A stretch of 39,142 nucleotides of DNA from contig JBGTUV010000001.1 in assembly GCA_041938985.1 (NCBI GenBank), positions 1 to 39,142 of the forward strand, written 5' to 3'. This document shows, piece by piece, positions 1,441 through 12,600 of this stretch; positions within the stretch are counted from its first letter, which is position 1; each line of letters opens with the position of its first letter. Below the pieces are notes generated by a model. It saw only the letters and a program-made list of their open reading frames with translations, was not told the origin of the DNA and did no database searches. The DNA is from Candidatus Nitromaritima sp. (GTDB lineage: Bacteria; Nitrospinota; Nitrospinia; Nitrospinales; VA-1). The position numbers were made by a program, and so were the translations under genes.

Positions 1441-1884
1441 ATGATAAAAATATTAACTACAGGTGGCACAATTGAAGGTGTAGATTCTGCAAATAACGAC
1501 GGAATCAAAACATCGAACCTAACCGAAGATTTCTTTAAGTCAGCGAATGTTTCATTCTCTTATTCCTTTGAAAATGTCTTGAACAAAGATAGTCGCTCAA
1601 TAACAGATGAAGACCGTCAGCTTTTGGTTGATAAAATCAAGGCATCGAGCGCAGAAAAAATAATAGTAACCCACGGTACTTTCACAATGGAAGATACCGC
1701 AAAATATATCGGAAAATTAAACCTGAACAAAACAATTGTCTTAGTAGGTTCATTCATTTTGGGCACATCAAAGAATACTGACGCACCGTTTAATTTGGGT
1801 TATGCCGCATGCTCGGTTCAGTTTCTTAAACCAGGAGTGTATATCGCTATGAATGGAACAATCTTCAATTGGGGTGGCGAGTGA
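1441..1884 (+). CDS. Asparaginase-domain protein (short form); C-terminus possibly altered at a recombination junction
   Basis: N-terminal ILTTGGTIEG matches the asparaginase TGGT signature. The ORF ends exactly where the convergent ssb-like similarity stops. Confidence 0.6.
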   Translation: MIKILTTGGTIEGVDSANNDGIKTSNLTEDFFKSANVSFSYSFENVLNKDSRSITDEDRQLLVDKIKASSAEKIIVTHGTFTMEDTAKYIGKLNLNKTIVLVGSFILGTSKNTDAPFNLGYAACSVQFLKPGVYIAMNGTIFNWGGE

Positions 1885-1980
1885 AAAACGGGCTACTTTC
1901 TTTCCGCTTTCAAGGTTCGTAATGGTTGGTTCTTGTCCAACGTTTCCAATTAACTGTACGTGATTTTTAATAGTACTCAT
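1873..1980 (-). pseudogene. ssb: Truncated ssb (N-terminal roughly 36 codons of an ICE-type single-stranded DNA-binding protein)
   Basis: From the internal ATG at 1980 the translation MSTIKNHVQLIGNVGQEPTITNLESGKKVARFSLAT matches the start of an SSB OB-fold. After about 1873 the frame runs antisense through the asparaginase gene and loses all SSB character. Confidence 0.7.
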
Positions 1981-2040
1981 AATAAAAGATTTAAAGATTA
2001 ATATTTCCCTTTTCAATTCAACTGTGATTAAATTTTAAGG

Positions 2041-2698
2041 GGTGTTTGTTCTTTTCTTTCGTGCACCGCACAATGGATAGAGTGGGTTTTGTCAAGACTT
2101 TTAGGGTAAAATCAGGTGTGTTTGCGACGTAGTAAATTCCTTGGAATTTCAAGGAAGTAGAAACCTTATTTTTCAATAAAACTCAGTACAGTCTTGACAA
2201 GTTCCATAAGGGCATTAGCGATTCTTTTAAACGCGGTTGCGTTTGAGTGTACCGACAGTTAAGCGAAATAAGTGGCTGTGGTTAAATTAGAATTGGTTAT
2301 GTCGTGCCTGTTTTTCGACGCCCCGAAAAACAATAAAGGCTTTATCCATTATAAACCCCTTAAAATGTGTAAGACAGCGATTCGGTTTTTAAGGATTTTC
2401 GAAGAAGCACTCAAGAAGGGCTTACCGTAAATTCTGTTAAGAAAACCGAAGTGATGGCTTTCCGATGAAAGGCGGACTTAATTCACAATTTTGGCTCAGG
2501 AATGTAGTGTCCCTACCCAGCCTAAGCGGATAGGGTTAGCGGAATGGAAAGCTAAAATTATGGATTGTGTCCAAGATAGTTGTAGTGAAGCTCTTTTCCC
2601 AGAATGTAGCTTATCGCAAAATGAGGGAAATGTGCTGAGTGATTTTAGTAGTCGATTATCCCGTCCGTAACGTGCAAAAAAGTACGGACTTTTCTGTT
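2041..2698 (+). ncRNA. Candidate large structured non-coding element of unknown class (RNA, or an ssDNA promoter/ssi-type element)
   Basis: No ORF of 60 aa or more in any frame across 2017-3040. G+C is about 40% by hand count against about 27-33% in the flanks. Several perfect 7-11 bp helices are visible. The terminal hairpin plus T-run reads as a terminator only on the + strand. Confidence 0.35.
2663..2698 (+). terminator. Intrinsic-terminator-like hairpin
   Basis: GTCCGTA (2663-2669) pairs with TACGGAC (2683-2689) across a 13-nt loop, followed by TTTTCTGTT. Confidence 0.45.
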
Positions 2699-2781
2699 AA
2701 GGACAGAGCCTAAATTTTAAATTTTCTTGCTATCTCATTTTTAGAAACTAGACAAATTTAAAATTTGCAGTAGTTGCTACT

Positions 2782-2919
2782 TTATAAATGCTTTTTATTC
2801 AAGTACTTTTCAAACTCTGTATTATCTAAATCAGTATCTCTTTGATTGGTTTCGAAATTCCTGAGTTCATCATTACAACCATCAAATTTGGCTCTAATCT
2901 TTTTGATTTTTTCTTTCAT
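2782..2919 (-). CDS. Small ORF, 45 aa (MKEKIKKIRAKFDGCNDELRNFETNQRDTDLDNTEFEKYLNKKHL)
   Basis: ATG at 2919 and TAA at 2782-2784. It is below the ORF-track cutoff and there is no independent support. Confidence 0.25.
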   Translation of the reverse strand: MKEKIKKIRAKFDGCNDELRNFETNQRDTDLDNTEFEKYLNKKHL

Positions 2920-2993
2920 TTATAAAGGTATTTTCTACATTTTAATATGCAGATTTGAAAAAAGTATTCCACTATGCGAAAATCCTTTCGTAT

Positions 2994-3030
2994 AAAATTA
3001 AAAAGCCCGATTAGAATAAACCAATCGAGC
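2994..3030 (-). terminator. Intrinsic terminator downstream of the 50-aa ORF
   Basis: The minus-strand RNA GCUCGAUU...AAUCGGGC forms an 8-bp stem that needs one G-U pair, so it works only on this strand. It is followed by UUUUUAAUUUU. Confidence 0.55.
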
Positions 3031-3040
3031 AACTAATCAG

Positions 3041-3193
3041 TTATTTTCCTTTCGAACTACCTTTTGAACCTGAAGATGAATTTTTAGAACCTCCACCTGA
3101 TTTACTTGGTGCATTACTTCGTCCAGTTCCGGATGGCTTTCCAGTAGTTGATGGCCATCCGCCAGCATTTCCTTGTCCTTTACCTTTGCTCAT
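3041..3193 (-). CDS. Small basic Gly/Ser/Lys-rich protein, 50 aa
   Basis: ATG at 3193 and TAA at 3041-3043. The translation is MSKGKGQGNAGGWPSTTGKPSGTGRSNAPSKSGGGSKNSSSGSKGSSKGK, with 9 basic and 0 acidic residues. It has its own terminator and a TATATTTG box at 3277-3284 on the minus strand. Confidence 0.5.
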   Translation of the reverse strand: MSKGKGQGNAGGWPSTTGKPSGTGRSNAPSKSGGGSKNSSSGSKGSSKGK

Positions 3194-3320
3194 AATTTTT
3201 TATATATTTTAAAATTAATATTCATTTTTTCTGCATAATATTTGTTCAAATTACATCGAACTTGTTGTATCTGTACCAAATATAGTATTATCCCATCATC
3301 ATTGGTATGGAATTCTAATC

Positions 3321-4235
3321 TTAATTTTTATCTTCTTTTTTTGGCATCAGTTCTTCTATATCTGATAGTTCGTTTACGATTCCCTGCTCCTTTAATGAGT
3401 TTTCAATATTGATTTGAACAACATTGGCGTTGGCTTTCCAAACAACTTCCGTAATAAAGGCAATGGTAAGTTGTACTTTTAAATCGGTAGCAAAATCTAT
3501 ATTGGAATTTTTCCATTTGTCCCTATGTTTAGAATTAGCTTCTTGCGTTAAGTCGATTAAAGAGCCGTAGATTTTTCTATCTTCATCTAATATCCCAAGT
3601 TGGTGTTCTTTTTGTTCATCAATTTTAAGGTTCTTATGTTTTAGAATAGGCAAATCAGCTTTTGGTAAAACGAACAGTACATTTTTAAGTCCTGTAGATG
3701 GAATCCTAATAATTTTATCCTCAATTTTATTAAAGTCATCTATCCCATAGATATTTAGATTCATTGCTACAATCACATCTCTTTCTGCATCAAAACCTAA
3801 TCTTTCAATACCTCTGACCAAGTCATCTTTACGAAGAAGATACCTTTTTTTTCTGGCTGATAGAAATGCGTTAGGAATGTAATAATTAATGTTCTGGTAC
3901 ACTATCTGTTGGGATAATATAGTGTCCGCATTAAGATGCGGGATATCTCCGGATGTAAACGCAGATTTCTGAAACAGATTCATTGTACCATTTACACCGA
4001 AGGAAATAGTAGGTTGCCCATCAAAATTCTCGGCAGAATTCTGGATACTATCAAAATTTTCTAATGCTTTTATAATGGCATCTTTAGAATTGATTAGAAA
4101 ATCCGATTCTTTATCATAGTCAATATCTGCATTTAATCTTGCATCTTCAATAGCTTTTTCAATGGATGTTTCGAGAACATCTATAAATTTTGATGACTTG
4201 GCCTTTAGCTTCTTTATCTCTTTCTTCTTCTTCAT
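3321..4235 (-). CDS. Hypothetical protein, 304 aa, no recognisable motif
   Basis: Long ORF whose start lies 1 nt after the stop of the upstream gene. The N-terminus is Lys-rich. Confidence 0.8.
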   Translation of the reverse strand: MKKKKEIKKLKAKSSKFIDVLETSIEKAIEDARLNADIDYDKESDFLINSKDAIIKALENFDSIQNSAENFDGQPTISFGVNGTMNLFQKSAFTSGDIPHLNADTILSQQIVYQNINYYIPNAFLSARKKRYLLRKDDLVRGIERLGFDAERDVIVAMNLNIYGIDDFNKIEDKIIRIPSTGLKNVLFVLPKADLPILKHKNLKIDEQKEHQLGILDEDRKIYGSLIDLTQEANSKHRDKWKNSNIDFATDLKVQLTIAFITEVVWKANANVVQINIENSLKEQGIVNELSDIEELMPKKEDKN

Positions 4236-4236
4236 A

Positions 4237-5655
4237 TTATATTGTCTTTAAGAGATTTTTATCTTTCAACACTTTTTTCAAACAGAACCTGAAATAATTA
4301 ATGGATTCTTGCCAACGTAATAATTCCAATACCTCGGTCTGAGGTAAGGTAGGTTGCGCAGTGAAGTTATCGTAGGTATTATATTCCGTTAATTTATACT
4401 GCCTTAAAAAGAGCAGTGCTAGATATTGGCATATGTAAAAAGTAACGCGCCTTCTGTTCCCTAAATTATCTAATCCTGGGAAAGGATATGATAAATCAAT
4501 GGGATAATATCCTCTACCAAATTCATCCTTGAAACTACTAAACCAGGTAAAAATCTCTGTCATATTATTAGGTAACAGAACATATTTTGGTGGCTGATGC
4601 TGTGTATATGTAAACAGCGTTTTAATGGCTTCATAGTTTTTCTGATATATCAATAAACCACCTAATGCCAAGTGGAACTCAAAAAAACGTTTTCTTTCGT
4701 TATCCCTTTTATCTATTAATGACTGGTTATCGTATGTGTGGGTTTCAAAGTTATAGTTTGTTCCATACACGCGTTGTAATCCAAAACTAAAATATTGATG
4801 TGCCGTACCCCAATAGTTCCCCACAAATTTGGCATTGTTTGATATGAGTACAACATTTCGCCAAAGCTCTTTGTAGGTTTCGTTAGAGATTGGGGTTTCA
4901 AATATGCCTTGCCCCATCAGCCATATGCCACTTACAACAAAATATTCAAGACTTTGCAAGTCTTCATTTCTACCCTTAGCAACTTCCCTAATGATTTCCC
5001 TTATGCCATTGTGAAATTCGTGATTAAACTCAACTTTAAAGTTTTCAAATCCATCAGGTTTCTCTTCTTCTCTAGGCCTTATGAAGTTTGCACGGTAATT
5101 ATTAAATTCTTCTGTGTAGAACGTAACTAATGTTTCTTCCAGACCCTTATCCTGTGTTCTAATAGCGAATATTGCCAGTTCATTGATGATTTTGAAATAG
5201 AATTTGTCATCTTCATCTTTCTTCAACTTTCGGTATTTGGAAATAACATAGGTAAGCAAACGTGTAGACTTACCATTGTAGAGTGATACTTTATCTAACC
5301 AAATAATAAAAATCACAACCAATGCAATTGTTGAAAGCAATACTAAGATTCTAGCTGAGTTTTGCATCCACCAGTTACCCTTCCAAAAAAGAGGTTCGAG
5401 GTCTAATATTAGGAATATAAATGAGCCGATTGTAAGGAATAAAACCCACTCAAAAACTGTTATTCTTCTTGACCTTCCTGGTAGTATTCCAAGAAATTTG
5501 GTCTGCGGAAATTCACTTTCAAAAGCATTGGCCAAATAGTTTGATGAAAACTTATAACCAATATTGGATATTTTGTCTACGATAATAGGGTATGCTATAC
5601 CCAAAATTGCAATATCGATAGCGACACAAATTTCTATGATATATTTAAATTCCAT
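4237..5655 (-). CDS. Hypothetical membrane protein, 472 aa (N-terminal TM helices plus a roughly 330-aa soluble domain)
   Basis: Hydrophobic segments IIEICVAIDIAILGIAYPIIV, VFEWVLFLTIGSFIFLILDL and ILVLLSTIALVVIFIIWL. The gene is tightly packed behind the AbiE genes. Confidence 0.8.
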   Translation of the reverse strand: MEFKYIIEICVAIDIAILGIAYPIIVDKISNIGYKFSSNYLANAFESEFPQTKFLGILPGRSRRITVFEWVLFLTIGSFIFLILDLEPLFWKGNWWMQNSARILVLLSTIALVVIFIIWLDKVSLYNGKSTRLLTYVISKYRKLKKDEDDKFYFKIINELAIFAIRTQDKGLEETLVTFYTEEFNNYRANFIRPREEEKPDGFENFKVEFNHEFHNGIREIIREVAKGRNEDLQSLEYFVVSGIWLMGQGIFETPISNETYKELWRNVVLISNNAKFVGNYWGTAHQYFSFGLQRVYGTNYNFETHTYDNQSLIDKRDNERKRFFEFHLALGGLLIYQKNYEAIKTLFTYTQHQPPKYVLLPNNMTEIFTWFSSFKDEFGRGYYPIDLSYPFPGLDNLGNRRRVTFYICQYLALLFLRQYKLTEYNTYDNFTAQPTLPQTEVLELLRWQESINYFRFCLKKVLKDKNLLKTI

Positions 5656-5660
5656 TCACG

Positions 5661-6122
5661 TTAATTTACTAATAGTTCTACCGTCTTATACCAATAATAA
5701 AATATGGACTTATCCGGTTGTCGCTTTAATCTGTTCAAAAATGCCCAATCTGGATGTTTTATGGTCAGTTTGCCGGTATCCTGATTCTCATAATATTCTA
5801 TTTCAACTACTTCCTCTTGTAGCAGTATTGCATTCAAATAAGCGACTCTGGCTGATGCTGACAATGCTTCTTCAATTCTAAAATTTCCTGTCATCAAAAA
5901 CGCACTGCCAAAACTTCGTATGCCAGAACTTAAATCCGCAAATTTCTTTTTTGCTTCAGCAGTTGGATTGCGCTCTCGTCGTGCAATAATTGCACAGGTA
6001 TTTATAGAATCCCACAGCACATCTTTATCACTGAGATTCCTTTTACTAAAATTAGCATCCGAACTGCGATAAGATAGTTCTGCTTTCGCGAAAGCAGAAA
6101 AACTTTTTTTCACTGTGGCCAT
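5661..6122 (-). CDS. 153-aa ORF in the same frame as the AbiEii-like ORF (probable detached C-terminal part)
   Basis: Its ATG at 6122 lies exactly 216 codons after the ATG at 6770, so the two ORFs share a frame. Only TAA (6144-6146) and 7 sense codons separate them. Confidence 0.55.
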   Translation of the reverse strand: MATVKKSFSAFAKAELSYRSSDANFSKRNLSDKDVLWDSINTCAIIARRERNPTAEAKKKFADLSSGIRSFGSAFLMTGNFRIEEALSASARVAYLNAILLQEEVVEIEYYENQDTGKLTIKHPDWAFLNRLKRQPDKSIFYYWYKTVELLVN

Positions 6123-6143
6123 ATCCGTAATACTTTCAAATAG

Positions 6144-6770
6144 TTATGACAAGTCAAACAATTGTTTACAGATTTCCATTGCAAACAGCTGGTCTTGTTT
6201 ATAGTAGGGAATACCAATAGTTTCTGGTGCAAATGCAGTTAGCTTATCACCACAAATGGCATTAACCGATGGTGTCATTACAGTTGTTACTGTTCCATCA
6301 ACAGAGAGCCAAGGTGTTTCAATTGGTGATTCGATAATTTCTGGGTAGTGTGGACTATCAAAAAGAATGTCTAATAGAATAGTTCCTGGCACGTTTGGGT
6401 TATACACCGACTGAAACTCTAATGTGTAATGTGCCTTTGGCACACCTTCTTTATAGCTTCTACGTTCGTTCAATACGTGTTTTGTAAAATGTGAATTGGC
6501 TATTACCGTATCTAATATTGCCTCTAATTCTTTACGTTCGATACTCGAAATAATATCAATATCAATGGAAAAACGATTTCCCTCTTTCAACAAAAGCACA
6601 ACTGATGTACCACCTTTGAACACAAAATCAAGTCCAGCTAATTTTAAATGTTCCAACAGGGACAATGCGTGAACCATTTTTTCTAAAATAGTAACGTTAA
6701 TGGACTTATGTTCTTTTTTTAAACGAAAGTTATCCAGCCATTCCTTTGTAAAACTTTTTTTATCAATCAT
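6144..6770 (-). CDS. AbiEii/AbiGii-family nucleotidyltransferase toxin, N-terminal portion (208 aa)
   Basis: NTase motif FVFKGGTSVVLLLKEGNRFSIDIDI. It overlaps the upstream AbiEi-like gene by 8 nt and ends just after an LFDL motif. Confidence 0.75.
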   Translation of the reverse strand: MIDKKSFTKEWLDNFRLKKEHKSINVTILEKMVHALSLLEHLKLAGLDFVFKGGTSVVLLLKEGNRFSIDIDIISSIERKELEAILDTVIANSHFTKHVLNERRSYKEGVPKAHYTLEFQSVYNPNVPGTILLDILFDSPHYPEIIESPIETPWLSVDGTVTTVMTPSVNAICGDKLTAFAPETIGIPYYKQDQLFAMEICKQLFDLS

Positions 6771-7530
6771 ATGGTATATCTTCTAAGAAACCTGGAATGT
6801 AATTACTTATAAATTGTTTGATTTCCTGTTCTTTTTTACGTCGTTTTGCATAGCTGAACATCCTGGTAAAATTAATGCTGTACCTGTCTATGATATTTTC
6901 ATAGATATGTACCACTTCAGGACCTTGGTAAAAATGAAAGAGGTTTTCATCTGCAAATAGGTCAACCATTATCTTTTCTAGTGTGGCTATTGCTACAACG
7001 TCCTTCTTGTTTTTTGTTTTCTGAATGGGCGCCCTAGTCACCAAACGCTTAATAACAACTGGCACATTACTTTCTGAAATGTAAAACTGAATTTCCTTCT
7101 CATCTGGATTTAGGTAAAAATCCATTCTCAGATTATCATTGAGGTAATAATAGAGTGAGTCTATAAACTCTTTTTCTACCTCGACAATAATTATTTGATT
7201 GGAAGTTTGGTGTTGGGTAAACTCATTAAGCCATTGGGTTTCCCAGATTGCATATTTTATATCCTCAAAGCGCTCGTTGGTCTTGCGAGCGATTTTATAA
7301 ATATTATCTGACAGAAGGGCTTTATACTTAGGCTTATAGGAAATAACATATAGCCCACGTCCTATTGTTTTAATGATATCCTTTTTTTTAAGGTCATAGA
7401 TTCGCCAACCAAACGTATTCTCTTTGAGGTCTGGTTCAAAATCGAGATAAAAGTCATATAGTTCATTCCTATTGAATGAGCTACGGTCCTTAAAGGCTTC
7501 TATAAGTCTATTTTCTATAATTTTTGGCAT
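6763..7530 (-). CDS. AbiEi-like antitoxin / transcriptional regulator
   Basis: N-terminal winged-helix-like segment ...WRIYDLKKKDIIKTIGRGLYVIS. It sits immediately upstream of the NTase and overlaps it. Confidence 0.7.
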   Translation of the reverse strand: MPKIIENRLIEAFKDRSSFNRNELYDFYLDFEPDLKENTFGWRIYDLKKKDIIKTIGRGLYVISYKPKYKALLSDNIYKIARKTNERFEDIKYAIWETQWLNEFTQHQTSNQIIIVEVEKEFIDSLYYYLNDNLRMDFYLNPDEKEIQFYISESNVPVVIKRLVTRAPIQKTKNKKDVVAIATLEKIMVDLFADENLFHFYQGPEVVHIYENIIDRYSINFTRMFSYAKRRKKEQEIKQFISNYIPGFLEDIPYD

Positions 7531-7565
7531 AACTAAAAATCAAAACTTCGCCAAAAATACAAAAA

Positions 7566-7620
7566 AGTGGTAAATATTTGAAAACAAATTATTGCCACTA
7601 TCAAAATTAAGTGGTAAAAT
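7566..7620. promoter_or_regulatory. Candidate abiE operator: three AGTGG(T/C)AA boxes
   Basis: AAGTGGTAAATATTTGA at 7565-7581 and AAGTGGTAAAATTTTGA at 7609-7625 are direct copies. ATTGCCACT at 7591-7599 is an inverted copy. All lie in the 114-nt gap upstream of the AbiEi-like gene. Confidence 0.45.
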
Positions 7621-7644
7621 TTTGATTAATGGTTATCAACGTGA

Positions 7645-8400
7645 TTACTGCTTAAAGTTCAATATTGATAGAAATTCCAAAGATTTTGATTGTATTTTTT
7701 CAATAACAATCTTGTCTTTATCGGTCTCAAGCAATGCCCAGTATTTTTGTTCGTTCCAGATATGTTCTCGTTGTAAACCAGAACCAAATTGCGTGATAAA
7801 ACCCCAAAACCACAAATCATCCCAAATTTCCATCTGCTCAGATGAATAGCTTTGTTGTAAAACGGAATTGATGTTATCAAAATTCCATTTTTCTGATGAG
7901 TCAAGTTTATAAAAGATTGCTTCAATCACGGTATCTACAGGCAAAAAGAATTTTTTACTGGAATCTATCTTTTGTGGTGCATCATTCCAAATTCGTAATG
8001 ATTGGTCGTAACTACCACTATGAATGTGATAGATGGTCTTTGTAAACAATGCAGATGTTTTCTTTCCCCAGCCATCTTGTTTCAACATTGCATTAAACAG
8101 CAGTTCGTAATTACATTCTTCACACTCTTTTTCTGTGAGAAACTCAACAAAATTGCGAAAGCCTGTTAAGAGATGTTGGTTGGCATATATCTTTTGAAAA
8201 AAATCTGAGAGCCTGTTTATATTTGGTCTGCTTTGGGTATTTACGATATGATGTAGAAGGGAATATACTTTTTCTTGTGTACTGCTATATGACGACAAAA
8301 AACGGTAATATGATTTTGTCTGTACAGTATGGTTAAATTCACGGTTCTTTTCCAGGAATTTGAATAGGCTGTCTAATGATTTAGTTAAAGAGTGTTTCAA
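7645..8400 (-). CDS. HhH-GPD-superfamily-like protein (putative DNA glycosylase/lyase), 251 aa
   Basis: GWGKKTSALFTKTI followed by FLPVDTVIEAIF resembles the EndoIII GVGRKTANVV...AVDTHI pattern, with the Lys and Asp retained. The apparent start is TTG, and there is no in-frame ATG for about 100 codons. Confidence 0.5.
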   Translation of the reverse strand: MKHSLTKSLDSLFKFLEKNREFNHTVQTKSYYRFLSSYSSTQEKVYSLLHHIVNTQSRPNINRLSDFFQKIYANQHLLTGFRNFVEFLTEKECEECNYELLFNAMLKQDGWGKKTSALFTKTIYHIHSGSYDQSLRIWNDAPQKIDSSKKFFLPVDTVIEAIFYKLDSSEKWNFDNINSVLQQSYSSEQMEIWDDLWFWGFITQFGSGLQREHIWNEQKYWALLETDKDKIVIEKIQSKSLEFLSILNFKQ

Positions 8401-8402
8401 AC

Positions 8403-8864
8403 TTAGGGGTATGAATCAAGTTGAACAGTTCCATCGGCACTTACCCAGTAATGACTAATTCCTATTTTGTTTAGTTCTGGAATTATCCCTGCAATTGCAC
8501 TTCTAATTTGCTCGTCCTCTGGGTGGGCAATGGCTATTGTCGCTTCAGGATGTGCGACTTTGGTTTCGAGGCATTTAATTATAGCTTTTCCCAAATGTGA
8601 TTTAATTTGGCCTGAATTAAAAAATGGGCGTTTTTTAGTGGGTGAATCGTTATGCGCTTTCGCACCTTTTACTTCTACGAATAACTTCCTGTTATTTTTT
8701 ACCGCAACAATATCATAACCTCTGGTTTGTCCCAAGCAGAAACTTTCTATTGCATAGCCTTGTTGTACCAAAAAAGGCATCAATAATTCAATAGTTCTAT
8801 TTTCAGTAAGCTTTTCCACAACTATAGTCAATAATGTACAATATACTTTATTATTTGTTTTCAC
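8403..8864 (-). CDS. PD-(D/E)XK-type nuclease-like protein, 153 aa
   Basis: GYDIVAVKNNRKLFVEVKG fits the D...(E/D)xK core. The start is GTG. Its stop lies 2 nt before the next ORF's start codon. Confidence 0.55.
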   Translation of the reverse strand: MKTNNKVYCTLLTIVVEKLTENRTIELLMPFLVQQGYAIESFCLGQTRGYDIVAVKNNRKLFVEVKGAKAHNDSPTKKRPFFNSGQIKSHLGKAIIKCLETKVAHPEATIAIAHPEDEQIRSAIAGIIPELNKIGISHYWVSADGTVQLDSYP

Positions 8865-8880
8865 CTAAAAGTTGAAAATT

Positions 8881-8915
8881 AAAAAGAAAAAATCCAGTTT
8901 AGATAGGTACTGGAT
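8881..8915 (-). terminator. Intrinsic terminator after the DUF932 gene
   Basis: ATCCAGT (8892-8898) pairs with ACTGGAT (8909-8915). On the minus strand the hairpin is followed by TTTTTTCTTTTT. Confidence 0.6.
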
Positions 8916-8928
8916 AAACCTTTTAAAG

Positions 8929-9765
8929 CTATACCAGGGCATAGACTTCATCAAAGAGTTTCTTGTCCAACCGCTCTTGTTGGCCAAAGCTTTTCTTTAA
9001 CGTGTTGTGCAAAACTGCGTTGAAGGCGTTATAACCTAACCATAAATTCGGTTCTTCATTGAGCAATAAGGCTTCATAGTTTAGAATTTCTATGACTTCA
9101 CGCGACTTCTTCGATGGGTCGCTGTTCTTGTCGCTACATTCATAGCGGAACAGTTTGGTTCTGTCAAGAATCGCTTTTACAAATTCCTTGGTGTCGATGA
9201 TTTTAAATTCCTTCATCTTGTCAAATTTCTTTGTGATGGTATAGAACTCATTGTCAAGAAATTTATCGAAAAGATTGTTCAGCCTCGGCATTATAAGGTC
9301 TGTATTGTTTCTGCTGTGCTTAATCGAAAACTCGATTTCGGCCTGTGAAACGTGAAGTCCATTGGAACATACTTTTCGATAGAATCCAAAGTGGCCAGAG
9401 GTCTTTTCACTACCATCATACGAGTTCTTGAAACGAAGCATTGGTAGTATCAAATCCTCATCATTTTTGACCGTAAACTGACTTTTGTCGTCAATGATAA
9501 AGTCAGTAATAAACGACCTATCATTCTTATTGATGGTGCGTTTGTGGTAGTTGAGTCCGGCATCAGTCAACATTTCTTCTGCTTTCTTGAAGAACAGTTG
9601 GTTCGGGATGTGGCCGTAGCTGTTCGATACCACATTAACAATTTTTCCATTTGAAATGATGACGTTTTCAAGTCCACGTCGAGATTCCATCTGCGTTAAG
9701 GTTTTTAAAGATTTCATTTCTGATGGAACAAAAATTTCATCCTGTTGTAAATTTTGTAAATACAT
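8929..9765 (-). CDS. DUF932-family protein
   Basis: RFKNSYDGSEKTSGHFGFYRKVCSNGL matches the DUF932 core (NSxDGS...VCxNG). Confidence 0.8.
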   Translation of the reverse strand: MYLQNLQQDEIFVPSEMKSLKTLTQMESRRGLENVIISNGKIVNVVSNSYGHIPNQLFFKKAEEMLTDAGLNYHKRTINKNDRSFITDFIIDDKSQFTVKNDEDLILPMLRFKNSYDGSEKTSGHFGFYRKVCSNGLHVSQAEIEFSIKHSRNNTDLIMPRLNNLFDKFLDNEFYTITKKFDKMKEFKIIDTKEFVKAILDRTKLFRYECSDKNSDPSKKSREVIEILNYEALLLNEEPNLWLGYNAFNAVLHNTLKKSFGQQERLDKKLFDEVYALV

Positions 9766-9782
9766 AGCTTTTCAATTTTAGG

Positions 9783-9944
9783 TTAAACATTTTGTGATAG
9801 CACAGCGTAATACTCTGGATGCTTTTCTCTGTAGTAGGCCAGATGACTTTCGGCACCTTCAATCCTGTAATTTTCTTTACTGGATTGATAATGTGCCTCG
9901 GCTTCTTGCACTGAAATCTTCGCCTTTGTTGATACTTGTTTCAT
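9783..9944 (-). CDS. Small ORF, 53 aa (MKQVSTKAKISVQEAEAHYQSSKENYRIEGAESHLAYYREKHPEYYAVLSQNV)
   Basis: Its ATG sits at the same position relative to repeat R1 as the ParB-like ATG does relative to R2. It ends 17 nt upstream of the DUF932 gene. Confidence 0.45.
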   Translation of the reverse strand: MKQVSTKAKISVQEAEAHYQSSKENYRIEGAESHLAYYREKHPEYYAVLSQNV

Positions 9945-10097
9945 AATGTTGAAATTTTAGTTAAACAATATTTGAGCAGTACCCAAACGGAAGCTAAAAT
10001 CACAGCTCAAAAGGAAACGGAATAAATGAGAAATGGAATGCGCGCAAGGGCTTTATGCCGTAGTCTTTTGATGGGTGTATTTTACGAGTTTATCTTT
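9939..10097 (-). repeat. Leader/promoter repeat R1 (partner at 11981-12139)
   Basis: By-eye alignment is roughly 85% identical over about 155 nt, with one variable patch of about 20 nt. It contains hairpin 9971-9977/10005-10011 and two AAACGGAA boxes 30 bp apart (9985-9992 and 10015-10022). Confidence 0.85.
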
Positions 10098-10145
10098 GCG
10101 CTGATATTGATTGATACTTTTACTTTGAACCTCTATGATGTGGTC

Positions 10146-10180
10146 ATAAAAAGAAAAAGGGCCGACACGAATGCCGACCC
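10146..10180 (-). terminator. Intrinsic terminator after the ParB-like gene
   Basis: The minus-strand RNA GGGUCGGC AUUCGU GUCGGCCC needs G-U pairs, so it is strand specific. It is followed by UUUUUCUUUUU. Confidence 0.65.
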
Positions 10181-10198
10181 TTCTTCAAACAACAAAAG

Positions 10199-11986
10199 CT
10201 AATCGTTGAGTTCCTGAATTTTCTTCTCAAGAACTTCGATGCGCTCTTTCAAACGTGCTTCACGCTTGTCTCTTTTCTCAGAATATGCTTTCTCAATTTC
10301 AGCAATCTTCGACTTGTAATATCCTTGTATTGCATTATAGAATGATATATTCGTTAGATTGTTGACGTGGTTGCTCTCGCCAAAATGGACTTGTCTCGTG
10401 AGGATATAGCGAATCAATTTGTGGAAGACTTCCTTTTTGAACTTCTTCTTGAAATTCTCGACCATTTCAACTTTGGTCATTTTGGACGTGTCGCCCAAGA
10501 ACTTTGAGAAATACTTTTGCTGGCTCACATAATCCACATTATTTTCAAAAAGCGATATCGAGAATGCCACCATTTCGTCTGTGGAAAGTGTCTTCTTCGT
10601 ATCGATGTAATTGGTCTCACGAATCATCTGGACAACTTCTTCAAACTGCTTGTTGTTCTCGATGTGCTTCTTGCGGATTTCCCTTTCGTTGATTTTCACG
10701 ATTTGTTCTTCAGGTGTACAATCTGCCATTTTTCTATTGGCCAATGGTGCTGAATATTCAGTTGATTCGTTTTCTGATTTCTCAATCACTTTTACGAAGG
10801 CACTTTTGTGCTGGTATGTTTCAGGATGGAAGACGATACCGTTTACAAAACCATTATCCTTTGCAGAATTATACGTTTTCAATGCTTGTTCGTAATCCTG
10901 CATCGCTTCATCCAATTCCGCCTTTAATTCATCTTCTGAATAATCGTAATGCTGATATTCAATCTTAATGGCTTCGATTGTAGGTTCGATTGGATTTTCG
11001 ATAATTTCAACATCATCTAGTAGATACACTTTAAATCCATTTTTTTCCAGTTGGGAAATAATAAGCTGATTGCTTTCTTCGTCTGCCCAATACCGGCGAA
11101 TTTCAGGAAATAAAAGAATGTTCTCTTTTTTGGTTTTCTCAATCAAGTTCAAGAACGATTTGGATTTCTTTGTCTCAAAACAAGCCGATTTAGTGCAAAC
11201 CATTTTACCTTCGCCAAAAAGATTCCCTTGATTCGCAGCATTAAATGGACATTCTACACACGAACCCGCTTTTGGCACCAAAGTCTTATCTGCAACATCA
11301 AAGGATGCTTTTTCTAAATCATAGGATTGGTCTTTAATCATCCTGTTTATTTGATGCGCATTAAAAGTTTCACCCATTGTTTCCAGCATCATCTTTTGTT
11401 CCTCTGGTGTAAAGAGCGCAACACTGACACCTAAGGAAATGGTCATTTCGCCATTGCGTACAAAATGTTTGAACCCGTCAATCAATCCAGCCAACTTCAA
11501 ACGTTGTCTTATGAAATTGTCCGTTCTTCCCAGGCGTTTAGAGATTTCAGAGGGTTGATACTTGTCACTCAGATAAGCTATCGCTTCGGCTTCTTCGGTA
11601 GGCTCTACGTCCTTTCGTTGCAGATTTTCGATGATTTGAACTTCAAGCACTTCGTCGTTTTCATAAGTTCTTACGATACTGGGAATCGTTTTCTTGTTCG
11701 CTATTTTGCTTGCGCGAAACCGTCTTTCACCCATTACGATGATAAAGTCCTTTCCAGATTTGCGAACCGTTATTGGTTGCAATACCCCAAATTCCTTGAT
11801 GCTATCCGAAAGCTGTTGTAGCTGCTTATCATCAAAGGTCTTTCTCGGTTGCTTAGGGTCAGGCTTGATTTTGCCAATGGGAATGTTCTCAATTTGAAGT
11901 GCCGGAACTTTCTTTCCGTTCAATTCTTTCTTCGCAGTAGTCGTTGTACTTCTACGCTTTCTTGTGGTACTCGCTTTTGTTGTCAT
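10199..11986 (-). CDS. ParB/Spo0J-like N-terminal domain protein with a long C-terminal extension (ICE-type)
   Basis: IPIGKIKPDPKQPRK...VLQPITV...VMGERRFRASKIA is a ParB N-terminal domain with the GERR box. A Cys cluster GSCVECPF...CTKSACF follows. The likely ATG is at 11986; the ORF-track start at 11995 is TTG. Confidence 0.85.
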   Translation of the reverse strand: MTTKASTTRKRRSTTTTAKKELNGKKVPALQIENIPIGKIKPDPKQPRKTFDDKQLQQLSDSIKEFGVLQPITVRKSGKDFIIVMGERRFRASKIANKKTIPSIVRTYENDEVLEVQIIENLQRKDVEPTEEAEAIAYLSDKYQPSEISKRLGRTDNFIRQRLKLAGLIDGFKHFVRNGEMTISLGVSVALFTPEEQKMMLETMGETFNAHQINRMIKDQSYDLEKASFDVADKTLVPKAGSCVECPFNAANQGNLFGEGKMVCTKSACFETKKSKSFLNLIEKTKKENILLFPEIRRYWADEESNQLIISQLEKNGFKVYLLDDVEIIENPIEPTIEAIKIEYQHYDYSEDELKAELDEAMQDYEQALKTYNSAKDNGFVNGIVFHPETYQHKSAFVKVIEKSENESTEYSAPLANRKMADCTPEEQIVKINEREIRKKHIENNKQFEEVVQMIRETNYIDTKKTLSTDEMVAFSISLFENNVDYVSQQKYFSKFLGDTSKMTKVEMVENFKKKFKKEVFHKLIRYILTRQVHFGESNHVNNLTNISFYNAIQGYYKSKIAEIEKAYSEKRDKREARLKERIEVLEKKIQELND

Positions 11987-12139
11987 AATACTCAAATTTT
12001 AGATTAAACAATATTTGAGCAGTGAACCAAACGGAAGATAAAATCTTGGCTCAAAAGGAAACGGAATAAATGAGTAGGGGCAGAAGCGATGGCTTTATGC
12101 CGTAGTCTTTTGATGGAAGTATTTTACGAGTTTAACTTT
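11981..12139 (-). repeat. Leader/promoter repeat R2 (partner at 9939-10097)
   Basis: Same architecture as R1. AAACGGAA boxes lie at 12029-12036 and 12059-12066, again 30 bp apart. Confidence 0.85.
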
Positions 12140-12402
12140 CGGGAATATTGTATGATAAAAAACTTCTTACCAATGCTTTTAATTTTAATACATATCTCTA
12201 GAGGAAGCAGAAGTCTGAGGTAAGATTTTGTCCCATATTCATACTTTTTTTGGGATAAAAGCAAAGTACTTTAAAACTGTAATTCCTTGAGTGGAATGAT
12301 AAAAATCACTAGACTTTTCTAAAGAAAAGACTTTTTCATTGCAATTAATATCTAAAAATCACAAATGATGTCATTTCTTATTAGCATCCAAAAAAAGACA
12401 AA

Positions 12403-12424
12403 ATGTTGTACCTATGTTGTACCT
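12403..12424. repeat. Perfect tandem 11-mer ATGTTGTACCT x2
   Basis: The copies at 12403-12413 and 12414-12424 are identical. They lie about 60 nt from the tRNA 3' end. Confidence 0.6.
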
Positions 12425-12451
12425 GTCCATTTTTTCGCTTAGTTTTTTCAA

Positions 12452-12480
12452 TAAAAAAAGCCGAAGATAAATCTTCGGCT
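12452..12480 (-). terminator. Intrinsic terminator of tRNA-Leu
   Basis: AGCCGAAGA (12459-12467) pairs with TCTTCGGCT (12472-12480). On the minus strand the hairpin is followed by a U-run. Confidence 0.7.
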
Positions 12481-12484
12481 TTTG

Positions 12485-12566
12485 TGCGGGTGAAGGGACT
12501 CGAACCCCCACACCTTGCGGCATCAGATCCTAAGTCTGACGTGTCTACCAATTCCACCACACCCGC
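12485..12566 (-). tRNA. tRNA-Leu (anticodon UAG)
   Basis: The reverse complement GCGGGTG..TCAGA CTTAGGA TCTGA..TTCGAGT..CACCCGCA folds as a cloverleaf. It has a 7-bp acceptor stem, a long variable arm and anticodon TAG, and is 82 nt long. Confidence 0.85.
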
Positions 12567-12600
12567 ATAAAGTGCAATTTAACACTTTTTATTTGGTTTA

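Follow-up and report, generated by a model that had tools for sequence, protein, structure and literature searches.

What is a pair of genes for a 472-amino acid (aa) membrane protein and a 304-aa protein doing directly behind an abiEi–abiEii pair, and do the four genes form one system? This question is raised by the stretch of DNA analysed here, the 39,142 nucleotides (nt) of contig JBGTUV010000001.1 in the Candidatus Nitromaritima sp. assembly GCA_041938985.1 (in the following, the window). An earlier note, made from the sequence alone, had regarded the two products as a membrane protein and a separate partner, coupled to a regulator/nucleotidyltransferase pair in a candidate extended AbiE defence module. 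Our analysis shows that they are instead the halves of one protein, relatives of which are mostly single chains. The C-terminal half is predicted to adopt the fold of HK97-type phage capsids, and the protein looks like an autonomous module which shares an operon with AbiE in one clade of its family.

Two halves of one protein and their predicted folds

The 472-aa open reading frame (ORF) is located at positions 4237–5655 of the minus strand, 5 nt behind abiEii, and the 304-aa ORF follows at 3321–4235 of the same strand after a gap of 1 nt, so that both meet in a stop-N-ATG junction (TAA-t-ATG, 4233–4239). The 472-aa ORF has homologues in Flavobacterium, Sphingobacterium, Hymenobacter, Bacteroides, Chitinophagaceae and other Bacteroidota, and the vast majority of these are single proteins of ~750–770 aa. 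In one of them, the 754-aa protein P0010, residues 1–460 align to the 472-aa ORF with 50% identity and, collinear with this match, residues 476–751 align to the 304-aa ORF with 42% identity. A phmmer search of 1.84 billion representatives with the 304-aa protein found 259 clusters (50% identity), all from the family itself; neither alternative architectures nor capsid proteins were among them. Among the 150 matches listed of these 259, the full-length relatives carry the 304-aa domain at the C-terminus of ~730–800-aa proteins, and the remaining ones are shorter fragments or possible alternative splits.

For a survey of the family, one genome per species was scanned with the family alignment, and the loci were compared by phmmer, jackhmmer and clustering. 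In a neighbour-joining tree, the split forms made up a monophyletic group. Each of the 11 split loci examined has the stop-N-ATG geometry, while the stop (TAA or TGA) and the codon preceding it vary. Comparison with orthologues gave ratios of nonsynonymous to synonymous substitution rates (dN/dS) of ~0.05 for the 472-aa ORF and 0.09–0.10 for the 304-aa ORF; as judged from these ratios, both halves are real genes under strong purifying selection. Because of the monophyly, the conserved junction and the low dN/dS values, we regard the split as inherited and selected, that is, as a conserved and old gene fission. The stop-N-ATG junction implies, on sequence grounds, translational coupling by termination and reinitiation. 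Since the geometry is constant and the codons are variable, such coupling is favoured over programmed frameshifting. Two other explanations of the split were discarded. A recent frameshift or a sequencing error is ruled out by the monophyly, the identity range of 69–95% and the purifying selection on both halves. Programmed +1 frameshifting, which would re-fuse the halves, is ruled out by the variation of stop and preceding codon, as the geometry alone is kept.

AlphaFold2 models were obtained for the fused homologue P0010 (predicted local distance difference test, pLDDT, 87.5; predicted template modelling score, pTM, 0.75) and for the 304-aa protein of the window (pLDDT 89.4, pTM 0.82). The model of P0010 contains three transmembrane (TM) helices at residues 3–30, 67–83 and 100–127, followed by an all-helical domain (~130–460), two long helices (463–518) and an alpha/beta domain (535–735). 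Correspondingly, the 472-aa product of the window has hydrophobic segments centred near residues 15, 77 and 112 and continues into an all-helical domain. Hydropathy and modelling thus agree with the N-terminal TM helices and the helical soluble domain of ~330 aa that had been described for this product, and the soluble nature and Lys-rich N-terminus ascribed to the 304-aa product were likewise borne out. From hydropathy and the positive-inside rule, the N-terminus is predicted to lie outside and everything past TM3 in the cytoplasm.

A Foldseek search with the full-length P0010 model matched its C-terminal part almost only to HK97-fold capsid proteins and an encapsulin; its helical domain gave no credible match. 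With the model of the 304-aa protein, Foldseek found 28 matches in the PDB at E<=1e-3, and all of the top 50 matches were encapsulins or phage major capsid proteins. The best of them was 8rvj (E 2.4e-5, TM-score 0.45), and others included 9fy6, the Mycobacterium tuberculosis entry 9bkx, Borrelia phage BB1, phage Douge, HK97 and SaPI1. In BFVD, 32 matches were found at E<=1e-3 (best 3.9e-6), and the top matches bearing a name were almost all major capsid or head proteins. Along the 304-aa model, N-terminal helices are followed by a long beta-hairpin, a long helix, an alpha/beta domain and a long C-terminal hairpin. This order matches that of the N-arm, E-loop, spine helix, A-domain and P-domain sheet in HK97. 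From these models, it is probable that the 304-aa domain has a true HK97-like fold.

At the sequence level, no model of Pfam (2025), NCBIfam (2026), PADLOC-DB v2.0.0 (2023) or PHROGs matches the 472-aa or the 304-aa product, and neither ORF matches an AbiE component model of PADLOC, Pfam or NCBIfam. A profile search of PDB sequences gave one chance-level match (E 0.55), and a tblastn search of 50,697 phage records with the 304-aa protein found nothing at E<=10. The former statement that neither product shows a placeable motif therefore stands for sequence models, and has to be given up for the 304-aa protein with respect to its predicted fold. In IMG/VR, one relative of the family was found. 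By these searches, the family is essentially absent from phage genomes and does not appear to be a phage gene. Neither head-morphogenesis genes (portal, protease, terminase) nor adjacent encapsulin cargo were found next to the family at the loci examined.

Conservation is distributed unevenly along the fused family. TM1 is by far the best-conserved segment, with a top-residue frequency of 0.86 and with E8, C10, Y22 and P23 invariant and D14 nearly so; conservation is lowest in the helical hairpin (0.53) and the HK97-like core (0.58). Such a gradient fits a conserved effector joined to a faster-evolving sensor.

The resemblance to HK97 capsids and encapsulins thus comprises the predicted fold of the 304-aa protein and the helical segment which precedes it, as the delta-domain does in HK97. 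In contrast to these proteins, the family has no sequence membership in their families, has no head or cargo genes as neighbours, occurs outside phage genomes, and is fused or coupled to a three-TM anchor and a 330-aa helical domain. Assembly of a shell by the family seems unlikely. The encapsulin families 1–4 of Andreas & Giessen (PMC8346489) do not include it.

The AbiE pair and the cargo behind it

By its profile matches, the pair upstream of the split gene is bona fide AbiE, with the regulator gene first and an overlapping nucleotidyltransferase gene second. abiEi (6763–7530, minus strand) encodes a 255-aa DUF6577-type antitoxin and putative transcriptional autorepressor, which matched the PADLOC model PDLC02235 at 1.3e-92 and the Pfam family PF20217 (DUF6577) at 1.1e-76. 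abiEii (5661–6770, minus strand), the nucleotidyltransferase toxin gene, contains a nonsense codon and appears as two profile-matching pieces. The N-terminal part (6144–6770) overlaps abiEi by 8 nt and ends at an in-frame TAA (6144–6146), and the C-terminal part (5661–6122) continues in the same frame from an ATG at 6122, 21 nt past the TAA. The pieces cover positions 1–198 and 209–343 of the 344-position PADLOC model PDLC02299 (2.8e-82 and 7.9e-36); Pfam PF08843 was matched at 1.5e-17. All coordinates and junctions of the five tightly packed minus-strand ORFs, from 7530 down to 3321, were found as they had been given before.

The nonsense codon was traced by comparison with a locus of a Leeuwenhoekiella palythoae metagenome-assembled genome (L068), in which abiEii is an intact ORF of 369 aa. 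Codon 209, TAA in the window (6144–6146), is AAA (Lys) in L068 and thus differs by a single substitution; orthologues are generally intact (367–369 aa). Therefore, as far as can be read from the sequence, the AbiEii toxin of the window is inactivated and abiEii is a pseudogene. abiEi and the genes for the 472-aa and 304-aa products are all intact in spite of the dead toxin gene. In two other loci (L008 and L013) abiEii is likewise found as two ORFs, owing to either real frameshifts or assembly errors.

The promoter/operator region upstream of abiEi (7531–7644, minus strand) contains the direct repeats TTTACCACTT at 7609–7618 and 7565–7574, the inverted AGTGGCAA at 7592–7599 and a Bacteroidetes-type TAttTTTG (-7-like) box at 7552–7559. 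The CCACT-containing direct and inverted repeats are conserved and overlap the Bacteroidetes-type promoter. Across eight AbiE-linked loci, including that of Gramella with 73% identity overall, the ~95 nt 5' of abiEi are nearly invariant. In the system of Streptococcus agalactiae, AbiEi autoregulates its operon via promoter repeats (PMC13064643); by analogy, the conserved repeats fit autoregulation by AbiEi, which would bind them, also here. At the other end, a terminator-like hairpin with a T-run (3005–3030, minus strand) is the first such site 3' of the 304-aa gene, and the transcript may end there. It sits in a window-specific insertion of ~660 nt relative to L068 and is therefore outside the ancestral module.

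The arrangement found in the window is not isolated. About 35 loci share the order abiEi, abiEii, the membrane/capsid-fold gene (either 472 plus 303 aa or fused with 759 aa) and, where present, a gene for 263–271 aa. They come from Leeuwenhoekiella, Winogradskyella, Altibacter, Flagellimonas, Nonlabens, Mesonia, Dokdonia, Zunongwangia, Gillisia, Maribacter and Gramella, and the block with the same promoter/operator is present in at least 10 genera of marine Flavobacteriaceae. Most copies reside on conjugative elements beside genes for ParB, DUF932, single-stranded DNA-binding protein (SSB), RadC, a DNA methyltransferase and a TraG-like coupling protein; the Gramella copy lies at a site outside such integrative and conjugative elements (ICEs) and adjoins JetABCD/Wadjet. 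In the family tree, the AbiE-linked members group in a single clade. Near the ~32 other sampled members, which are all fused and 741–796 aa in length, neither AbiEi nor AbiEii is encoded, and an all-against-all clustering of the neighbours of stand-alone members revealed no conserved neighbour or partner. In three loci of the close clade (L073–75) the AbiE pair is kept and the membrane gene is truncated after ~98 codons. The coupling to AbiE proposed in the earlier note is accordingly real as a conserved block, yet confined to a single clade, and the majority of the family stands alone.

Conversely, AbiE pairs related to that of the window were compared with regard to the genes behind them, using AbiEii homologues at 56–70% identity (58–70% for L083–L089). 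The DUF6577-AbiEii pair is followed by a RES protein gene (335 aa, 1-nt junction) and HNH_5 in L083 and L084, by RES, a UPF0489-like 263-aa gene and HNH_5 in L085, by an N6-methyltransferase and a helicase-nuclease in L086, by OLD-like TOPRIM and HNH proteins in L088 and by a KAP NTPase in L089; nothing related follows it in L087, L090, L091/92 and L093. About half of the related pairs consist of the two genes alone. Since related pairs carry differing cargo or none, we regard the AbiE pair as autonomous and the position after abiEii as a variable cargo slot; AbiE operons of Bacteroidota seem to recruit interchangeable defence-like genes. Taken together, the locus looks like two autonomous modules that share one AbiEi-controlled operon rather than one obligate four-protein machine. 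Of the proposed extended AbiE defence module, the conserved block and the frequent vicinity of defence genes to the family remain, but the modules look autonomous.

The 263–271-aa gene overlaps the end of the module in most relatives (L001–L016, L047–L059, L064, L007) and is absent from the window, L061, L062 and L068. Its product matches PF12640 (UPF0489) marginally, with 27.3 bits at a cutoff of 27. Relatives of this UPF0489-like gene were found 5 nt upstream of a stand-alone family member (L026:9243–9977) and between RES and HNH_5 behind the related AbiE pair of L085 (7122–7913). Beside family members, it recurs only in the AbiE clade and in L026. In addition, two Pricia loci (L077:695–2697 and L079:1879–3769) contain an N-terminal remnant of the membrane gene of 70–112 codons, which in both cases directly follows a conserved ORF pair (102–134 aa and 418 aa).

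Candidate defence role and rival explanations

The immediate neighbours of stand-alone members were scanned individually at 17 loci. By raw count, seven of these have defence or candidate-defence genes next door. In L030 (2–8748), a type I restriction-modification (RM) operon is interrupted by a fused 762-aa member, which lies between hsdM-hsdS and hsdR with gaps of 13 and 27 nt. In L024 (Flavobacterium aquatile), genes for a helix-turn-helix protein and a PD-T7-4-like DUF4145 protein are located upstream with 5–7-nt gaps, and in L019 an nSTAND3 NTPase gene lies 25 nt downstream. PDC-M19B is adjacent in L041, SIR2/PDC-S65 and TIR/PDC-S35 in L018, and BnzB of the Bunzi system in L035; the seventh locus is L026 with its UPF0489-like gene 5 nt upstream. 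The other ten adjoin housekeeping genes, such as those for FolD, DnaK, Cmk and DnaB, or uninformative ones. The suggested enrichment of homologues in defence islands is thus seen at part of the loci, and the assumption that all family members reside in such islands proved to be only partly true. The family shows the pattern of a gene that occurs sporadically, moves horizontally and is apparently, though not universally, enriched in defence contexts.

We propose that the two genes encode a candidate defence protein which acts autonomously, consists of a capsid-fold sensor attached to a membrane module and is co-transcribed with AbiE; our confidence in this reading is evenly balanced. A defence role of any kind appears fairly probable, whereas the specific combination of a capsid-mimic sensor with a membrane effector is put forward tentatively. 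The operon would be transcribed from the AbiEi-controlled promoter. Its N-terminal product would anchor in the inner membrane via three TM helices, with the nearly invariant TM1 and its conserved acidic residues, and would display the helical domain in the cytoplasm. The C-terminal product, made by stop-N-ATG coupling, would dock on the N-terminal half through the helical hairpin and thereby reconstitute the ancestral protein. The cytoplasmic capsid-fold domain may then mimic or sense assembling components of the phage head, such as capsid protein, scaffold or portal, and the membrane module might execute the response, either by membrane damage leading to abortive infection (Abi) or by sequestration of head assembly at the membrane. 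AbiE would act in parallel as a toxin–antitoxin or Abi module that also stabilises the element, and the dead toxin of the window would leave AbiEi regulating two intact downstream genes. The family was presumably captured directly behind DUF6577-type abiEi/abiEii in one clade of marine Flavobacteriaceae, mostly as cargo of conjugative elements.

Several points weigh against this proposal. The argument for defence is one of guilt by association, and the ten loci with housekeeping or uninformative neighbours do not add to it. Capsid sensing and membrane killing are purely inferred, and the membrane part could be just an anchor. The genes between 7530 and 3321 form one operon by prediction, and so does their co-transcription follow by prediction; a scan for sigma-70 promoters gave 19 sites versus 21.8 expected, and this is the wrong promoter type for Bacteroidetes. 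With regard to the fold, the Foldseek matches have TM-scores of 0.3–0.47, all below 0.5, root-mean-square deviations (rmsd) of 6–10 Å and identities of 6–14%, and Pfam, PHROGs, the PDB profile search, the phage tblastn and phmmer gave no sequence link to a capsid or encapsulin family. The same values, together with the fact that the models are predictions, would favour the view that the capsid resemblance is spurious or convergent and that the alpha/beta domain is unrelated, possibly still serving defence by another mechanism. We consider this view unlikely, as all top 50 PDB matches and nearly every named BFVD match have the HK97 fold, with probabilities of 0.9–1.0 and alignments of ~300 columns, and as two separately built models, of the fused homologue and of the window protein, led to the same outcome. 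Moreover, families with the HK97 fold typically share no detectable sequence similarity.

The other rivals concern the function of the locus as a whole. If AbiEi, AbiEii, the membrane protein and its partner were one machine, an obligate extended AbiE system, the tight 5-nt and 1-nt junctions and the single conserved promoter would be expected, and the block has indeed moved as a unit to the non-ICE site of Gramella. In a version of this explanation, the AbiEii nucleotidyltransferase would act as sensor or generate a signal, and the membrane/capsid-fold protein would be one effector among several that can be exchanged, as in cyclic oligonucleotide-based antiphage signalling systems (CBASS); the other effector-like genes in the same slot (RES at a 1-nt junction with HNH_5, KAP NTPase, OLD-like TOPRIM, methyltransferase with helicase-nuclease) would agree with that. 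However, the ~32 sampled members without AbiE have the same domain architecture, and neither group has an extra sensor domain. Furthermore, about half of the related AbiE pairs do without further genes, AbiE outlives the truncation of the membrane gene in L073–75, and the 472-aa and 304-aa genes of the window are intact and under purifying selection although abiEii has a nonsense codon. We thus regard an obligate machine as improbable. A role outside defence, be it conjugation or entry exclusion, the attachment of a capsid-like assembly or compartment to the membrane, or a housekeeping function there, would be in line with the ICE genes that accompany the module in the window and its closest relatives (ParB, DUF932, SSB, RadC, TraG coupling protein), with the housekeeping genes next to several stand-alone members, and with the encapsulin compartments that HK97-fold proteins form in cells (PMC8346489). 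Yet most members lie outside recognisable ICEs and have no conserved neighbourhood; one member sits inside a type I RM operon and others beside STAND, TIR, SIR2, Bunzi and PDC genes. The family has no conserved cargo or partner gene such as encapsulins have, it is small (the 259 clusters given above), and a membrane tether of ~450 aa per protomer is hard to reconcile with a closed shell. A non-defence role appears quite unlikely as well.

A comparison of the candidate defence protein with described systems places it near several of them and inside none. The AbiE part of the window has the typical members, a DUF6577-type AbiEi and a PF08843 AbiEii with an 8-nt overlap of their genes, and its promoter bears repeats like that of the autoregulated S. 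agalactiae system (PMC13064643); in contrast, AbiE is defined as a two-gene system, and the window adds the 472-aa and 304-aa products and has a nonsense-mutated toxin gene. A precedent for a non-phage element that encodes a capsid-fold protein interfering with phage head assembly is Ccm of SaPIbov5, a capsid-protein homologue which co-assembles with and redirects helper-phage capsids (PMC8569155). Ccm, however, is soluble, recognisably homologous to its target capsid and serves satellite packaging, whereas the family is membrane-anchored and lacks sequence similarity to capsids. Capsid sensing itself has a precedent in CapRel (PMC9712102). CapRel SJ46, Lit, PifA and single-protein membrane Abi effectors follow the logic proposed here, namely to sense a late structural phage protein and to kill or arrest the cell. 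The likeness extends to the union of sensor and membrane part in one polypeptide, which is split here, and to a sporadic distribution in defence islands, but PADLOC, Pfam and NCBIfam revealed no homology of the family to these systems, and CapRel SJ46, Lit and PifA themselves have no capsid fold. Finally, a gene similar to UPF0489/peptide-arginase-like PF12640 (N-domain of FlmR/OhkR, PMC12703449) follows the module in most relatives but not in the window.

In the literature on DUF6577, on HK97 in defence, on membrane-anchored capsid-like proteins and on AbiE with a membrane or capsid partner, no description of the family was found, nor of any membrane-tethered HK97-fold protein outside viruses and encapsulins. 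No paper on the 472/304 family came to light, in agreement with the earlier note, to which its combination with AbiE was not known as described. The AbiE pair is known; the split protein family, restricted to Bacteroidota and without a curated model or solved relative, is new as a kind, and its function is a putative one. If our proposal is true, the family represents a cellular HK97-fold protein that is neither virus capsid, gene-transfer-agent capsid nor encapsulin, is tied to the membrane and resides in defence islands and conjugative elements. This would amount to a third fate of the capsid fold, its exaptation into immunity, and to a testable case in which defence relies on the structural mimicry of a core phage protein. 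One can speculate, with considerable doubt, that an unrecognised class of Bacteroidota immunity exists in which a domesticated HK97-fold domain, tethered by fusion or as a coupled split to a three-helix membrane module, senses or poisons head assembly by mimicry, and that DUF6577-type AbiE pairs are regulated 'heads' of operons with interchangeable defence cargo, such as the present protein, RES with HNH, a KAP NTPase, RM genes or an OLD-like protein. Few phage-defence systems have been characterised in marine Flavobacteriaceae and other Bacteroidota, and the family offers an entry point to this field. The variable slot behind AbiE bears on the recruitment and co-regulation of defence genes and on their spread by ICEs.

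Surroundings of the module in the window

Positions 3299–12600 of the window are 95.7% identical to the L. palythoae locus L068. Just past the 304-aa gene, the ~660-nt insertion mentioned above (2640–3298, minus strand) contains a 50-aa Gly/Ser/Lys-rich ORF at 3041–3193 (MSKGKGQGNAGGWPSTTGKPSG...), which has no family match, and then the hairpin at 3005–3030. The adjoining ~770 nt (1874–2639) are 87–94% conserved across ICEs and mostly have no ORF of at least 60 aa; they end in a truncated SSB gene (ORF 1768–2016, minus strand). At 1874 the homology to ICEs stops abruptly and is abutted by an unrelated plus-strand ORF (1441–1884), which suggests a deletion or rearrangement of the element. Rfam models at the gathering threshold detected a tRNA-Leu only and nothing in 1874–2639.

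Upstream of the AbiE promoter lies a cassette of two minus-strand genes, which encode a 251-aa protein without family match (7645–8400) and a 153-aa NOV_C/PD-(D/E)xK nuclease-like protein (8403–8864). This NOV_C-type cassette travels as a unit and, depending on the ICE, is found on the upstream or the downstream side of the AbiE module, which suggests another small mobile module, possibly one of defence. At the tRNA-Leu gene (12484–12566, minus strand) the G+C content rises from ~0.33–0.39 on the ICE side, below ~12.5 kb, to ~0.45; the conjugative element with the module has probably integrated at this gene, which would thus mark its boundary.

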